From: Abditibacteriaceae bacterium
GTDB lineage: Bacteria > Armatimonadota > Abditibacteriia > Abditibacteriales > Abditibacteriaceae
DNA: 36,242 bases
Assembly (NCBI GenBank): GCA_031372065.1
Contig: JANMKN010000122.1
Coordinates: forward strand, 1 to 36,242
Reading direction: 5' to 3'
Shown here: in pieces, positions 14,202-33,375 of the stretch
Position numbering within the stretch: position 1 is the stretch's first letter
Layout of the letters: every line of letters begins with the position of its first letter
Position numbers and translations under genes: made by a program
The notes under the pieces: generated by a model
Seen by the model: the letters and a program-made list of their open reading frames with translations, nothing else
Database searches by the model: none
What the model was told of the DNA's origin: nothing

Positions 14202-14249
14202 GTAGGGGCACGCTACGGCGTGCCCGGACACGCCGTAGCGTGTCCCTAC
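14202..14249. repeat. GTAG-family REP doublet (REPIN-like)
   Basis: GTAGGGGCACGCTACGGCGTGCCC followed by the inverted copy GGACACGCCGTAGCGTGTCCCTAC. Confidence 0.85.
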
Positions 14250-14423
14250 AGGCGCCGCAAAAAATCCTCTTGCCAGTCGCGCCTTGTTTTTGCCATAATT
14301 CTGAGTGACCACAGCGGGAAAAGAGGGCGGTGCAGGGCGCAAACCTGAATTTACACGCCGCGTTCAGGGGCAGAGGCCCGCTTTGTTGCGTAAGACGCGC
14401 TGTTTGAGGCGCCAGATGAGAAT

Positions 14424-14600
14424 CGTATTGCCCTTTATAGAGGGTGTAAATCGCTATTGGAGCGACGTATAGAGCTATACAAGGCTCGTAAATCACTATA
14501 CGCGGGTCGTATAGGTCTATACAGAACTCGTAAAGCCCTATACGCCCTTCGTAAAGCACTATACGACGCTCGTATAGTGCTATACACCTCTCGTATAGTG
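14424..14600. repeat. 21-bp period tandem array of palindromic GTAWAG-NN-CTATAC units
   Basis: Unit starts at 14424, 14445, 14466, 14487, 14508, 14529, 14550, 14571 and 14592 (partial); exact 21-bp spacing. Confidence 0.92.
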
Positions 14601-14658
14601 CCCGGCGCGGCGCGTTTTTCGATGTTTGAGGATGATCTCTGCCATCAGGAGGGAATCG

Positions 14659-15321
14659 GTGTTTAAACCACGTTTCAAAGACAACGATGGCCTGTTTGCG
14701 GATCAGGCGGAAGGCTTGATTCAGTTTTTCCGCGACAACAAAACGCGCTTGGGCCTCACTGACGCGCAAATTGATGCCCTCGAAGCCATCGTGTCGCCGT
14801 TTCGTCCGGCACTCAATGCTTACAATGCCAGCGTGTTGACAACGCATAGCAGATCGCTGGTGCGCGACACCGCCAAAGAAAACGCGCTGAAGGCGCTCGG
14901 CACTTTTGTGGACAATCTTGGTGACAAGTTCACCAATCCCGACCGCGTCGCCAACGAGATGCCCGAACTCACCGGCCCCGGCGGGCCGCGTCCGGTGCCG
15001 AGCGAAGTGCCGCTACTTGTTATCACCAACGGCGCGCCGAGCGAATTCAAGGTGCAAATTTTCGATGCCGCTCATCCGGCGCGTCTGGGCAAGCCCGAAG
15101 ATGTGGACGACGCCGAACTGCGCTGGGAAGAAGACGATGGCAATGTGCCCGCCGATTACGACGATTGGCATCCCTGCATCACACCGACGAATTTTCGTTC
15201 GCCGTCTAAATTGCGCCTTAAACCGGCCTTGCGCGGCAAAACCATCCTCGTGGTGGCGCGCTTTCGCAATACCAATGGCGATGGGCCGTGGAGCCAACCC
15301 GTTTCCGCCATTTTAGCGTGA
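14659..15321 (+). CDS. hypothetical cytoplasmic protein: N-terminal helical domain plus C-terminal fibronectin type III-like domain
   Basis: GTG at 14659 with AGGAGG; helical N-half, Pro/Gly linker, then GKPEDVDDAELRW...VARFRNTNGDGPWSQPV (Fn3-like G-P-W-S end); no signal peptide. Confidence 0.75.
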   Translation: MFKPRFKDNDGLFADQAEGLIQFFRDNKTRLGLTDAQIDALEAIVSPFRPALNAYNASVLTTHSRSLVRDTAKENALKALGTFVDNLGDKFTNPDRVANEMPELTGPGGPRPVPSEVPLLVITNGAPSEFKVQIFDAAHPARLGKPEDVDDAELRWEEDDGNVPADYDDWHPCITPTNFRSPSKLRLKPALRGKTILVVARFRNTNGDGPWSQPVSAILA

Positions 15322-15338
15322 AGCTAAAAGCTCCAACA

Positions 15339-15372
15339 AAAAGCGCGTTTCTTGCTCAAGAAGCGCGCTTTT
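15339..15372 (+). terminator. intrinsic terminator after the Fn3-like gene
   Basis: AAAAGCGCGTTTCTTG-ct-CAAGAAGCGCGCTTTT (one G:U). Confidence 0.65.
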
Positions 15373-15522
15373 AAGCGGGCGAGACACCCGCGCCATATTA
15401 AATTATGAAAAGCAACTCATATTGCGCGGTTGCTTTGTGTTAGAACAAAGAGCGACGAAGTCGCTCTTTCCAGTGCCTACCATAAGCGCACTGTGTAACG
15501 TGAGTGAGAAAGGAAGAAACCG

Positions 15523-27484: not shown

Positions 27485-27551
27485 CAGTGGTCGGTGGGCA
27501 GTGGTCAGTGAGCAGAAAAACTGACCACCGACCACTGCCCACTACCTACTG
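27485..27551. repeat. inverted heptamer tandem repeat
   Basis: CAGTGGT CGGTGGG CAGTGGT CAGTGAG ... CTGACCA CCGACCA CTGCCCA CTACCTA. Confidence 0.8.
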
Positions 27552-27553
27552 AA

Positions 27554-28221: not shown

Positions 28222-28306
28222 GGTGGGTTGGCTGAGTGGTCGAAAGCGCTTCACTGCTAACGAAGTGAACCTATGGGTTCCGGGGGTTCGAATCCCTCAC
28301 CCACCG
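28222..28306 (+). tRNA. tRNA-Ser (anticodon GCT), no encoded CCA
   Basis: Acceptor GGTGGGT/ACCCACC plus G73; D arm GCTGAGTGGTCGAAAGC; anticodon loop CT-GCT-AA (GCT at 28256-28258); long variable arm GAACC/GGTTC; T arm GGGGG-TTCGAAT-CCCTC. Confidence 0.93.
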
Positions 28307-28325
28307 CTGAGGTTTTGAAGTCATC

Positions 28326-29387
28326 ATGAACAGTGCAGTTTCTCTAACTCCGGCGCGTTTGCCGGAATTTTTATTGAATGTGGCAACGGTGCGTCCGGTT
28401 TTCATCTGGGGGCTGCCGGGCATCGGAAAATCCTCGCTCGTCGAAGAATTCGCGCGCAGTGTTGGTTTGAAATGCGTGTCGCTTTTGGGTAGCCAACTGG
28501 CGCCGGAAGACCTTATCGGCGTGCCCCGCATCGAAGACGGCAAAAGCATTTTTTGTCCGCCGCGCCTCATCGCGCGCGACGAGCCGTATTGCTTGTTTCT
28601 TGACGAATTGAACGCTTGCTCACACGAAGTGCAAAAGGCGTTTTATTCGCTGATTCATGACCGCCGCTTGAGCGAATATGAATTGCCAGCGGGTTCGATT
28701 GTTATTGGTGCGGGCAACCGCGCGCAGGACAGCGCCATTGTCAAACCGATGTCTTCGGCGTTGCTCAATCGCATGGTTCATGTGCATTTGCAGGTGTCGC
28801 ACCGTGATTGGCTGGCTTGGGCTGGAGCGAATGGCATTCATCCTTTGATTCTCGAATATATTGGGCTGCGTCCCGACCATTTGTGGAGCGCACCGCCCAA
28901 ACATGAAGAGCCTTTTTCCACGCCGCGCTCGTGGCATATGCTGTCCGATGCGCTGAATGCGGCGGGCGCAAGCGGCGAAAGTGCGGGCGATGAACTGCTG
29001 GACGTTTTGTCCTTTGGCTGCCTGTCGCCGCAACACGCCGGGCAGTTCAAAGCGTTCAACAAGCAACTGCGCCATCGCTATCAATTGAATTCGATTCTCA
29101 AAGGCGATGTCGGTTGGCCGCACGCGCCCGAAGACCGCGATGTGCTTTATTTTCTGGCGCAATCGCTGCGGGCGCGCTTGATGAAAGAACTGCCGCCAAC
29201 GCGCGAAAATTTAGGCGGCTCGCAGCAGGAATTGGCCCATCGCGCCAAGGCTTTGCTAACCGAACTGGCCGGTCTCAGTTTGGAAATCGCGCAAATGAGC
29301 GTGGCCGAACAAGACGGGCAAACTTTGCCCGCGTGGTTTATGACCGAAATCGTGCGTGACTTGCCGCGCTTGGTGGTGAAGAAATAA
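28326..29387 (+). CDS. MoxR/dynein-related (AAA_5-like) AAA+ ATPase
   Basis: WGLPGIGKS Walker A, DLIGVP, LFLDELN Walker B, GAGN sensor I, ALLNR arginine finger, TPRSW sensor II. Confidence 0.9.
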   Translation: MNSAVSLTPARLPEFLLNVATVRPVFIWGLPGIGKSSLVEEFARSVGLKCVSLLGSQLAPEDLIGVPRIEDGKSIFCPPRLIARDEPYCLFLDELNACSHEVQKAFYSLIHDRRLSEYELPAGSIVIGAGNRAQDSAIVKPMSSALLNRMVHVHLQVSHRDWLAWAGANGIHPLILEYIGLRPDHLWSAPPKHEEPFSTPRSWHMLSDALNAAGASGESAGDELLDVLSFGCLSPQHAGQFKAFNKQLRHRYQLNSILKGDVGWPHAPEDRDVLYFLAQSLRARLMKELPPTRENLGGSQQELAHRAKALLTELAGLSLEIAQMSVAEQDGQTLPAWFMTEIVRDLPRLVVKK

Positions 29388-29436
29388 TTTCGTTTCCCCC
29401 TTCTTTTCAAGGGGAGGGGAAGGCAGGATAGGGTTT

Positions 29437-31248
29437 ATGGCACGCAAAAAGAGCGGCGAAAACAAACGCGATGTTGCGACGGAAAATTTTAGCGCGGGCA
29501 TGGTTTTGGTGTCGCGCCATCCGATTTTCGCACGTTTATGGCAATACGCGGCGATTTATCGCAGCGAAAGCTATGCGATGCCCGCCGATGGTTGGGCTTA
29601 TGTCACGTCCAACGGCGAAATTTTCGCGCATCCCAAACGCCGCGCCGCGCCCGAAGAATGGCTGCACGTTTTCGCGCATTGCCTGCTGCACTTGGGCTTC
29701 GGACATTTCCGCGAACGCGAAAATGCTGCCGCGTGGCAAGCGGCCTGTGATTGCTATGTCGCAAAGTTTTTGGGAGACATGAAATTGGGCCGCGCGCCGC
29801 TGGAAATGCAAGGCGCCATCGAAATGGCGCGCGATGAAGAAACGCTGTATCGCCGCTTTTGCGAAAACGGCGTGCCGCCCGGCACTCTGCATTTGGGCGC
29901 GCTTGGCCCAACGCGCCCAGATATGGTTTTCGTGGCGCCGTCAGCTTATCAGTCGTTGTATCGGGCGAAGCCATCCGATTGGTCGCGTTTGCTGGGTGAA
30001 GGCTTGGCTGATGCGGTTTCGGATGCCGTCAAAGTGGCGGCGGGCGTCTTGCCGCATTTAGGCGCGACAACTACGATGCGCAGCGCCGCGCAACGCGCCC
30101 GCGAGTGGTTTGTTTCGTCGTATCCGCTGCTCGGCGCGTTGGTGACGGCCTTTGATATTATTGAAGATCAGCTTTTTAGTCATCGCAAGGAAAATTCCGT
30201 GGCGGCGGTGGATATTGAAGGGCGCGAAATTTTCATGAATCCGGCGGCGGGTTTGGATGAAATGGAGTGCCGTTTCGTGATGGCGCACGAAATTTTGCAC
30301 GCCGCCTTGCGCCACGATGCACGGCGCCAAGGGCGCGATGCGTTTTTGTGGAATGTTGCCTGCGATTTCGCCATCAACGGCTGGCTGATAGAAATGGGCG
30401 CCGGTGAAATGCCTCGTTTGGGTGGTTTGCACGATGTCGAACTGAAAGGCTTGTCTGCCGAAGCGATTTATGACCGCATTGTCACGGATATGCGACGCTA
30501 TCGCAAACTTTGCACGCTGCGCGGCGTGGGCGCGAGCGATATTCTCGAACGCGGCACGCCGGATTGGTGGAATTGTCCGGCGGGCGTGACTTTGGACGAG
30601 TGGTATCGCCGCGCTTTGGGGCAAGGATTGGAGTTTCATCAAAGCCACGGGCGCGGCCTTTTACCCGCTGGTTTAATCGAAGAAATTCGCGCTTTGGCCA
30701 TGCCGCCGGTGCCGTGGGATGTCGAATTGGCACGTTGGTTCGATCAGCATTTTCCGCCGCAGGACAAAGTGCGCTCCTATGCCCGCGCCAGCCGCCGCCA
30801 GATGGCAACGCCGGATATTGCGCGTCCGGCTTTGGTGCGCGACAAAGAACTGCCCACGCGCACTCTCGGCGTGGTGTTGGACACGTCCGGTTCGATGGAC
30901 AGGCGCTTGTTGGCGCAGGCGCTGGGCGCAATTGCATCCTACAGCGTGGCGCGCGAAGTGCCCACCGCCCGTGTTGTTTTTTGCGACGCACAGGCGCACG
31001 ATGCCGGTTATATGGCGCCCGAAACCATTGCCGAACGCGTCCAAGTGCGCGGGCGGGGCGGCACCGTTTTGCAGCCGGGCATTGACCTTTTGCAAGACGC
31101 CAACGATTTCCCGCCCGATGGCCCGATTTTGATTATCACCGACGGCTATTGCGACCACGTGCGCGTGCGCCGCGAACACGCTTTTTTGCTGCCCGAAGGC
31201 CACAGTTTGCCTTTTGTGCCGCGCGGCCCGGTGTTTCGCTTGAAGTGA
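29437..31248 (+). CDS. DUF2201-like putative metallopeptidase plus VWA domain protein
   Basis: AHCLLH...WQAACD and AHEILH...WNVACDFAIN peptidase-like units; VWA MIDAS LDTSGSM, GRGGT, IITDG. Confidence 0.85.
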   Translation: MARKKSGENKRDVATENFSAGMVLVSRHPIFARLWQYAAIYRSESYAMPADGWAYVTSNGEIFAHPKRRAAPEEWLHVFAHCLLHLGFGHFRERENAAAWQAACDCYVAKFLGDMKLGRAPLEMQGAIEMARDEETLYRRFCENGVPPGTLHLGALGPTRPDMVFVAPSAYQSLYRAKPSDWSRLLGEGLADAVSDAVKVAAGVLPHLGATTTMRSAAQRAREWFVSSYPLLGALVTAFDIIEDQLFSHRKENSVAAVDIEGREIFMNPAAGLDEMECRFVMAHEILHAALRHDARRQGRDAFLWNVACDFAINGWLIEMGAGEMPRLGGLHDVELKGLSAEAIYDRIVTDMRRYRKLCTLRGVGASDILERGTPDWWNCPAGVTLDEWYRRALGQGLEFHQSHGRGLLPAGLIEEIRALAMPPVPWDVELARWFDQHFPPQDKVRSYARASRRQMATPDIARPALVRDKELPTRTLGVVLDTSGSMDRRLLAQALGAIASYSVAREVPTARVVFCDAQAHDAGYMAPETIAERVQVRGRGGTVLQPGIDLLQDANDFPPDGPILIITDGYCDHVRVRREHAFLLPEGHSLPFVPRGPVFRLK

Positions 31249-31343: not shown

Positions 31344-32669
31344 ATGCGATTTTTGTCTCGTTCATTTTTCATTTTTGCTTTTTCACTTTTCATTTTTCAT
31401 TGCGCCCACGCGCAGCCTTTGCCCGAACGCGCGCCGTTGCTGGGAAAAGTCACTACGACTGCCGCTTTGCCGATTGGCGGCGCGACAGTGACCGTCACGC
31501 GGCAGGATTATCAAGTCGTCGGCGAAGCCGCTTTTTGGGGCGGGCGCTTGCTGACCGGTTCCGATGGCGTCTTCAGCTTTCCCGAAGGCGAAGAAGGTAT
31601 TTATTCGCTGTCGGTGGTGGCTGAAGGCTACGAACCTTTTACCGGCACACTCGAATGGCAGCCAAAAGCGCCGCTTTATGTGACCAAAATGCTCAAACTC
31701 ACGCCACAGCCGCTGCACATTTTGAAACCGGATGGAACACCGGCAGCGGGCGCCAAAGTGTTTTTGTATTGGCGCGGACAACCGCCGGGACACGTTTCGC
31801 CCGCGTCTTTTGTCGCCGATGCCGCCGGAAACGTGGCTGTGCCGCCCCTCACGCCCGCGCAGTATTGGTTGCACGCTGTTGTGCCGGGCGTTGGCTACGC
31901 CATTTTTCCTCGTTTCCTCGTCAAAGAAAACCAGCCGCAAACCGCCGAAGTGAAATTGCAAACCGGAGGCATCATTCGCGCCACGGCTCGCACTGCCGAG
32001 GGCAAAGCGCTCGGCGGCGTGGCGTTGGGATTAAAAGAATGGGTCTCCGATGCTGCTGCGCAAGCCGAAGGTGGCATCGCGCAGGGCAACGATGGCGCGC
32101 TCTATTTGCAAACGCAGCCGCACTCGACCTTAGTCACGCAAGATGGCAGCGGCCAAATGGAAATTTTGGACGTGGCGCCGGGACGCTATCAGGTGCGCTT
32201 CTATATGCCGGGCGAAGCGAATCCGCTCGCGCAAACGATTGAAGTCAAAGCGGGCCAAGCTACAGAAATTAGCGGCATTTACACTTTGCAAGGCACCAAA
32301 ACGCCTTTGCAACTCACCGTTCAAACCTCTGATGGCAAGCCCGCTGCGGATCGTGAATTTGTGGTGCGTTTGCAGCCTTTGCGCAACGGTAATCCGGTGG
32401 CGTTTGCCGCTGAAGGCCCGCCGGTTCCGCCCGATGTGGCGCCGACAGTGGCGAGCTTGTTTCAAAGCGATTTGCTGCGCCGCATCAAAACCGACAGCAA
32501 CGGCAAAGCCACCCTTTTCCCGTTGCGCGCCGACGAATGGCAAGTCGTTGTTTTAGAGGATGCGCAAACGGTAGCGACCAAACCGCGAGCGACTGCCAAT
32601 AAAATTACGTTAGGCGAGCAGGGTGGCGAATTGACAGTCAAACTTGCGGCTCCCGCAGCACAACCTTAA
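31344..32669 (+). CDS. secreted protein with repeated carboxypeptidase-regulatory-like/Cna-B beta-sandwich domains
   Basis: Signal peptide ending AHA-Q; repeated P(I/A)xGAxV...TxxDG...GxY units. Confidence 0.75.
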   Translation: MRFLSRSFFIFAFSLFIFHCAHAQPLPERAPLLGKVTTTAALPIGGATVTVTRQDYQVVGEAAFWGGRLLTGSDGVFSFPEGEEGIYSLSVVAEGYEPFTGTLEWQPKAPLYVTKMLKLTPQPLHILKPDGTPAAGAKVFLYWRGQPPGHVSPASFVADAAGNVAVPPLTPAQYWLHAVVPGVGYAIFPRFLVKENQPQTAEVKLQTGGIIRATARTAEGKALGGVALGLKEWVSDAAAQAEGGIAQGNDGALYLQTQPHSTLVTQDGSGQMEILDVAPGRYQVRFYMPGEANPLAQTIEVKAGQATEISGIYTLQGTKTPLQLTVQTSDGKPAADREFVVRLQPLRNGNPVAFAAEGPPVPPDVAPTVASLFQSDLLRRIKTDSNGKATLFPLRADEWQVVVLEDAQTVATKPRATANKITLGEQGGELTVKLAAPAAQP

Positions 32670-33063: not shown

Positions 33064-33090
33064 AAACGGCTTTTCGCACTCAAAAATGCC

Positions 33091-33375
33091 TTCGGTAAAC
33101 GTTTCCCGACCTTCGCGGGCTTCCCGGACGGCTTCCGCAAACGTTTCCCGAAGGCATCTGGAAAGCCCGGCAGACTCGGCAAACGTTTGCGGGACGCGCC
33201 GGGGAATGTAGGAATACTTGGCAAACGTTTGCCAAGACCATCGGGGAAGCCCGGCAGAGTCCGCAAACGTTTGCCGAAGGCACCGGGGAATGCAGGAACA
33301 CTTGGGAAACGTTTGCGGAGCGTGTCGGGGAATGCAGGAACACTTGGGGAACGTTTCCCGAAGGCGCTGGGGAAT
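33091..33375. repeat. 42-bp period tandem array with palindromic AAACGTTT core (7 units)
   Basis: Cores start at 33097, 33139, 33181, 33223, 33265, 33307 and 33349 (last one GAACGTTT). Confidence 0.92.

Follow-up and report, generated by a model that had tools for sequence, protein, structure and literature searches.

A 21-bp phased array upstream of a helical and Fn3-domain gene in an Abditibacteriaceae genome, and its counterparts beside homologous genes

A tandem array of 21-bp units lies directly upstream of a gene for a 220-aa protein in an Abditibacteriaceae bacterium. The array, the recurrence of such arrays upstream of homologous genes, their B-DNA period (21 or 42 bp, rarely 22 or 43 bp) and their gene-less copies were all observed directly. 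We propose that the array and the downstream gene form one module, in which the protein would coat its own array on the DNA, and put the probability of this reading at about 0.55. Repeats of this kind are, by themselves, already known. What appears to be new here is the pairing of array and gene, together with the helical domain of the encoded protein; the mechanism is as yet unproven.

The array and the gene behind it

The window, by which we mean the whole stretch of DNA analysed (36,242 nucleotides), is an entire contig (C378) of a 6.14-Mb assembly. The features of the locus are as follows.

14270..14299, + strand: sigma-70-like promoter match TTGCCA-18-CATAAT with extended -10, from a consensus scan (10/12 matches)
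14424..14600, no strand: 21-bp phased array of 8 full units plus 9 nt (8.4 units) on an exact 21-bp grid; consensus CGTAWAG-NN-CTATACR plus a 5-nt linker, the two gene-distal units being the most decayed
14556..14580, no strand: internal inversion centre with 11-bp perfect arms and a 3-nt loop, where unit orientation flips
14647..14652, + strand: ribosome-binding site AGGAGG, from the sequence
14659..15321, + strand: gene for the 220-aa protein, with a GTG start at 14659 and a stop ending at 15321
15339..15372, + strand: terminator-like inverted repeat with 16-bp arms, 3' of the gene, not detected by the terminator scan

An earlier note on this DNA had described phased 21-bp units that decay away from the gene, and both observations were confirmed. 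The conserved dyad that it gave, GTATAG-NN-CTATAC, is exact in only 3 of the 8 full units; a relaxed form, GTAWAK-NN-CTATAC, is present in 6 of the 8, and 0 of 100 shuffles gave 9 matches of it (largest shuffle count, 0). The linkers, read in the note as 6 nt long and all different, do differ in every unit (8/8), but the frame reads better as 7-2-7 followed by a linker of 5 nt, with T as the last base in 6 of the 8 linkers. The inversion centre at 14556-14580 is also found in sister arrays on contigs C139 and C315. Where contigs of two further samples from the same study cover the array, no other letters were seen within it, such contigs being of a kind that drop rare variants.

The array ends 58 bp before the gene, which has its own ribosome-binding site and terminator-like hairpin, as the note had stated. 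The promoter scan of the region found 2 sites against 1.2 expected, and the match at 14270-14299 is therefore weak. If this promoter is used, the array would lie in the transcribed leader. Its location, with the probable promoter on one side and the start codon on the other, suggests autoregulation.

The locus is neighboured by a glycoside hydrolase, a 74-aa ORF and a MurG-type glycosyltransferase. Two REP-like elements had been read as flanking parts of the cassette, and this reading failed: the element at 14202-14249, a 48-bp GTAG-type palindrome, has 22 copies in the genome, the sequence at 15374-15400 is single-copy, and GTAG-type palindromes are not enriched near family genes (4/41, compared with 234/4746; p 0.14). 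Another dispersed palindromic element, with ~38 copies, lies at 15415-15489, just upstream of the MurG-type gene. Elsewhere in the window, heptamer tandem runs of the CAGTGRK, ACTGACC and TTCATTT types occur at 27485-27552 and 31349-31401; 127 lag-7 segments were counted genome-wide, and such runs are also common in the related genomes G002 and G003. At 28222-31248, a tRNA-Ser(GCT) precedes genes for a MoxR-like AAA_5 ATPase and for a DUF2201 metallopeptidase/vWA protein, and this group is possibly an insertion at the tRNA.

The 220-aa protein consists of a helical module (residues ~1-102, with a long helix at 48-90), a Pro-rich linker and an Fn3 domain (111-220). An AlphaFold2 model (pLDDT 94.6) comprises a helical hairpin, a 43-residue helix and a beta domain, the last being a seven-stranded Fn3 sandwich (VIA-align Z 12.7, rmsd 1.7 A over 95 aligned residues of model positions 111-220; Foldseek E 8e-6). 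The model and the structural match to Fn3 bear out the helical plus Fn3-like architecture proposed earlier. Pfam gave no match for the protein, an 88-member alignment of it matched no family in Pfam or NCBIfam at the curated level, and 30 paralogues matched no curated-level Pfam family. It is matched by 99 representatives of ~220 aa, mostly at 23-35% identity; named homologues are hypothetical proteins, for example from Tannerella and an Opitutaceae bacterium, and an Atlas search returned unnamed clusters plus one cluster with fn3 on 32% of its members. The homologue alignment contains no invariant column and no candidate catalytic residue; Pro and Gly occupy the near-invariant positions.

The protein is predicted to pair as a two-fold symmetric antiparallel rod about two DNA turns long. 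The homodimer prediction scored 0.73, against 0.00 for the best control, with a pLDDT of 87 and with runs agreeing in at least 95% of contacts; 20 of 30 solved homodimers attain the score mark used, as does 1 of 23 single chains, and the dimer model contains protein alone, no DNA. The predicted contacts (48-76, 51-72 and 55-69) are antiparallel and span residues 41-91. At 1.5 A per residue this span measures ~75 A, compared with 71 A for 21 bp, by arithmetic from standard rises without coordinates. The protein is acidic (net charge -5), the conserved basic positions 69 and 73 sit inside the predicted dimer interface, and further conserved basic residues fall in the Fn3 domain.

Arrays and homologous genes across genomes

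An iterated-profile search of the genome gave 42 ORFs at E < 0.1, one of which was removed by eye, leaving the 41 genes treated here as the family. Thirty-three of the 41 have an upstream array, compared with 238 of 3722 control ORFs (6%; p 2e-31), and these counts argue against chance adjacency. The eight remaining genes include two with 22- or 23-bp arrays, one with a more distant 42-bp array, two at contig ends and three without an array. Seeding from array-adjoining genes raised the candidates to ~90 in several length classes, the 23 seeds having been picked for having arrays; homology of the all-helical classes to the 220-aa protein is weak (hhalign mostly < 20%). Paralogues within one cell are each preceded by an unrelated array sequence.

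In a sample of the phylum, 25 of 301 genomes contained a match to the protein. At 30 loci (of 57 matches), an array was found upstream at 21 and downstream at 1. When the two loci of this genome are left out, 19 of 28 homologous loci in other genomes have an upstream array; 18 of these 19 arrays have the 21/42 period, and their unit sequences are unrelated. The array-plus-protein module put forward in the earlier note is upheld by these counts and those within the genome.

The coupling of array and gene is not obligate, as some homologues have no array. None was present at 9 of the 28 closer homologues in other genomes, and among all-helical homologues in relatives only 2 of 10 passed the array threshold, with 0 of 6 in genomes G004 and G012. 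G004 has dispersed arrays although its five detected homologues lack them. We also considered, and rejected, a correlation of genome-wide array density with hits of this protein's subfamily: 100-kb samples contained 0, 0, 0 and 2 arrays in four genomes with subfamily hits, compared with 4, 1, 1 and 1 in four genomes without. The motif of the 14424-14600 array family was not found in five relatives, a pattern scan of a species-genome collection gave 3 isolated matches, none with an array or gene, and no relatives of P0003 were found in metagenomes.

Several individual loci depart from the common arrangement. A one-module homologue common to this genome and a congener (L055/L021; G000:C265 and G003:C228) has three 23-bp perfect-looking dyads upstream and no long 21-bp array; in sequence, these dyads seem to resemble an ordinary operator. 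A 22-bp array is present at C122:29779. Array-linked genes of only 121-126 aa, without Fn3 and some with basic tails, occur on G000 contigs C50, C168, C102, C368 and C41, which suggests that the helical part is what accompanies the array.

Within the genome the array is not unique, and ~400 arrays of 20/21 or 41/42 bp, belonging to many sequence families, were found. Genome-wide autocorrelation identified 242 regions at lag 21, 255 at lag 42 and 39 at lag 41, and 0-16 regions at every remaining lag between 8 and 50. A segment scan counted 306 segments at lag 21, 33 at lag 20 and 6 at lag 22, and 319 at lag 42, 59 at lag 41 and 3 at lag 43. Merging, with removal of 17 heptamer runs, left 402 arrays (median length ~230 bp) in 149 sequence clusters. 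Only 40 of the 402 lie within long ORFs; the arrays lack a coding signal and are mostly non-coding. In the 194 clear 21-bp arrays, conservation peaks at the harmonic of 10.5 bp (0.195, compared with 0.1 for a flat distribution), and consensus units are more palindromic than shuffles (11.7 and 10.6 of 21, respectively). In-phase inverted units or blocks are present in 34 of the 194, and exact adjacent unit duplications in 59; the latter affect 2 of the 21 arrays that accompany the 41 family genes, compared with 57 of 173 others (p 0.04).

Most arrays stand without a gene of the family. A candidate gene follows 68 of the 402 arrays, and a recognised family gene is absent beside 295 of 363 non-coding arrays; 96 of these 295 directly match a gene-linked array. 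The view that the array is specific to the cassette is contradicted by these numbers. The earlier note had named a genome-wide occurrence independent of the gene family as evidence against a module, and such independence was found in part (295/363). Sister arrays of the 14424-14600 family occur on C139, C315 and C154 with no such gene adjoining, and clustering gave 7 members. Several of them contain runs of identical whole units, indicating that slippage acts on this family. These runs, along with the exact adjacent duplications in 59 of 194 arrays, are at odds with the notion of unique, information-bearing spacers.

In three congeners (79-97% complete), no array-gene cassette was found next to murG, and gene-less arrays are missing from syntenic sites; the syntenic junctions there, though without an array, are too diverged for a target-site duplication to be read. 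Terminal repeats or a shared leader or tail were not found for the 14424-14600 family. The left flank of the locus is single-copy, the lone weak hit of the right flank falls in unrelated sequence, and genome-wide only 44 of 425 flanks match a flank of the same family. No phage or plasmid hit was obtained.

Three further arrays were noted in passing. A second array in the window (33086-33375), of the 42-bp type with a AAACGTTT dyad and no adjoining family gene, clusters with the array upstream of gene C225 and is absent at the syntenic gap of ~20 bp in G001. Another (L193; G000:C373:6707-6989), likewise gene-less, has 21-bp units and belongs to the C118 family. It sits within recG in the gene's reading frame, adding heptad peptide repeats to a linker, and it is absent from recG of congeners G001 and G002. 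The third (L194; G000:C83:11358-11477), of the 14424-14600 family, lies at a contig end, apparently in frame within the first part of a signal-peptide gene, and Pfam gave no match for the gene fragment.

Repeat symmetry and protein architecture

Repeat symmetry was found to track protein symmetry: one-module proteins are associated with dyad-rich 21-mers, and two-module proteins with either weak-dyad 21-mers or 42-bp palindromes. For 20/21-bp arrays, the mean dyad z was 1.2 at 22 short one-module proteins and 0.06 at 16 all-helical proteins of ~230 aa (p 0.002), a comparison in which classes were assigned by length and eye, paralogues are not independent, and the duplication in the all-helical ~230-aa class is mostly presumed. 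Sixteen arrays of the 41/42-bp type, next to genes shown or presumed to encode two modules, had a mean dyad z of ~3.5. Exceptions are C190 (198 aa, 42 bp) and two one-module genes with 22- and 23-bp arrays.

Nine paralogues of 306-313 aa, consisting of two modules plus Fn3, contain the module twice (hhalign 95.8%), and all have palindromic units of 41/42 bp (dyad z 3.5). These nine proteins form one clade, and their 9/9 long period therefore counts as one event. Two families of ~323 aa are likewise internally duplicated (hhalign 97.6 and 97.2%), yet they have 20/21-bp arrays in 8 of 8 scored cases (dyad z 0.37), a ninth gene, C45, near a contig end, being left out of scoring. Doubling the module thus does not always double the period, and a rule to that effect was discarded. 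A simpler rule that fits is that a two-module chain equals a homodimer.

The two-module part of the paralogues folds in prediction as one rigid body (pTM 0.78, pLDDT 94; 10 sequences). A fold search with this helical part gave no match at E 0.001 and middling structural matches (best Z 9.2, rmsd 3.4, 127 aligned residues), which does not show a new fold; the best-scoring ones are helical hairpins that extend over both long helices.

Proposed mechanism, alternatives and known systems

In the proposed mechanism, one dimer would bind each 21-bp unit, so that the DNA between the probable promoter and the start codon would be coated. The long helices may act as a ruler, and the C-terminal part may touch the DNA, this part being Fn3 here and a short basic tail in some other array-linked classes. 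A chain with a duplicated helical module would act as a pseudo-dimer with an unchanged 21-bp footprint, arranged head-to-tail on asymmetric 21-mers and head-to-head on 42-bp palindromes. The result would be a filament with a 21-bp step, in which homodimers take symmetric units and pseudo-dimers take direct or head-to-head units. The array would then serve for autoregulation, as an operator or a roadblock. Copying of gene-linked arrays, together with slippage and inversion in phase, would give rise to the gene-less copies, and these would provide extra binding sites. Several points count against coating. The protein is acidic, and its conserved basic residues 69 and 73 lie in the predicted interface; moreover, coupling to arrays is not obligate, and array density did not follow subfamily hits.

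Alternative explanations were weighed against the same evidence. The array and gene could constitute a selfish mobile element, in which the protein, by stabilising 21-nt loops or hairpins in its array, helps the array, and at times the gene, to be copied to new sites, with regulation being secondary. The ~400 arrays and ~90 candidate genes in one genome, the failure to find the cassette at murG in three congeners, the absence of gene-less arrays at syntenic sites and the in-phase inverted blocks (34/194) would all suit such an element. The lack of an invariant or candidate catalytic residue, where only Pro and Gly are near-invariant, speaks against it, as do the missing shared leader or tail of the 14424-14600 family, the few matching flanks (44/425) and the absence of phage or plasmid hits. 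We consider it unlikely, and it is partly compatible with coating. The array might also be a cis element read through DNA geometry or by an unrelated host protein, while the gene travels along and its product does something else, for example as a scaffold. The acidic protein, the existence of homologues without arrays, and the arrays of G004, whose five detected homologues have none, are in keeping with this explanation; it leaves unexplained why period and symmetry vary with protein architecture, and why unrelated array sequences precede each paralogue in one cell. It seems to us about as probable as the mobile element.

A role for the array as RNA, either as a structured mRNA leader to which the protein binds or as a precursor cut into unit-length RNAs, appears still less probable. 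A promoter-like site does lie upstream, and RNA folding gave z scores of -5.8 for the array and -3.2 for the leader, but good folding is expected of any palindrome-rich sequence. B-DNA has 10.5 bp per turn and A-form RNA 11, and the observed period suits the former, with only 6 segments at lag 22. Further evidence against RNA comes from the 5-nt linkers, which carry little information, from the non-paired positions in the six best units, which are A-A, T-C or C-A and never G-U, from the Rfam search, which gave nothing above noise, and from 49 of 214 placed gene-less arrays lying between convergent genes. Of the two branches of the original inference, a DNA platform or a processed RNA, the DNA platform is the one supported. 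The most improbable explanation is that the array is a neutral slippage minisatellite whose place next to the gene is fortuitous, or that it encodes heptads, 21 bp being 7 codons. Whole-unit duplications are common (59/194), as slippage would produce; against a minisatellite stand the upstream-only linkage in many genomes and the one dominant period. Frames are open on both strands across the 14424-14600 array and read as heptads. Coding heptads were nevertheless rejected: period 3 is not raised (harmonic share 0.084, compared with 0.1 if flat, in 194 arrays of 21 bp), and the sister array on C315 has a stop codon in the heptad frame. In addition, arrays have 1.65 open frames compared with 1.51 in reversed controls (the gap to a column-shuffle control is larger, 1.76 and 1.42), and 39 of the 194 have no open frame at all.

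Coating of the array by its own protein would have parallels in known systems. Phased arrays bound by a dimeric protein are found in ParR/parC and SopB/sopC, and in plasmid centromere systems the array is often also the operator for the gene of the binding protein. The omega/parS heptads of pSM19035, as described in the available portion of PMC9499535, are likewise a plasmid centromere and operator array of contiguous phased repeats bound by a dimeric protein. By analogy, the array-gene module likely works like these arrays. Unlike omega/parS and ParR/parC, the protein shows no ribbon-helix-helix or HTH/ParB fold, its model being a helical hairpin, a 43-residue helix and Fn3. The setting also differs: no ParA or ParM was present among 25 window proteins scanned, the neighbouring genes are chromosomal housekeeping genes with no plasmid hit, and dozens of paralogues each have a different array. 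CRISPR and TIGR-type systems also combine a short-period array containing a dyad with an adjacent protein gene. In contrast to such guide arrays, the present units have non-random 5-nt linkers and 2-nt centres, identical whole units recur in sister copies, and no Cas or Nop-domain protein is linked to the array. The BrickBuilt MITE of Porphyromonas gingivalis is described in the available part of PMC4596501 as dispersed intergenic imperfect direct repeats of ~20 nt that change by whole units; its units measure 23 nt, it has a leader and a tail, and its terminal inverted repeats match an IS. By comparison with that description, the 14424-14600 family has unique flanks, no terminal repeats and a linked gene that does not encode a transposase.

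The closest precedent is the report of Subirana and Messeguer (PMC8161180), the available text of which describes bacterial tandem repeats of constant 20-21-nt length and variable sequence, with many families per genome, mostly non-coding, present in many bacterial groups and remarked to correspond to two helical turns. The arrays here agree with that description in their constant length and variable sequence (306 segments at lag 21 and 6 at lag 22; 402 arrays in 149 clusters) and in being generally non-coding (40/402 inside long ORFs). They differ from the repeats as described there in having a 41/42-bp class, dyads, in-phase inversions and a linked gene. Section 4.1 of that text speculates on a protein whose polymerisation on DNA would require repeats of constant size; the available text names neither such a protein nor a gene linkage. 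The available part of PMC6749651 adds nothing further on 21-nt repeats. A literature search, covering for the most part freely accessible articles, found no paper on array-gene pairing.

A wider and more tentative hypothesis, which we think rather less likely than coating itself, is that these proteins form a widespread and so far undescribed class of rulers. Such proteins would be rods of fixed length, either homodimers or pseudo-dimers, and would polymerise along their cognate helically phased arrays in steps of 21 bp, with a different sequence recognised by every paralogue. They would drive array copying and in-phase inversion across the genome, and would thereby explain the constant length of the 20-21-nt repeats of bacteria. 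The present family is proposed as a candidate for the unknown polymerising protein guessed at in the available text of PMC8161180. The symmetry rule predicts homodimers on dyad 21-mers, and pseudo-dimers on direct 21-mers or 42-bp palindromes, and the question could be put to the test with a single purified protein of 24 kDa and 180 bp of DNA. One genome would supply dozens of natural protein-array pairs usable for studying specificity, and, if the hypothesis is true, ruler proteins would be a natural set of orthogonal DNA-coating protein-array pairs.
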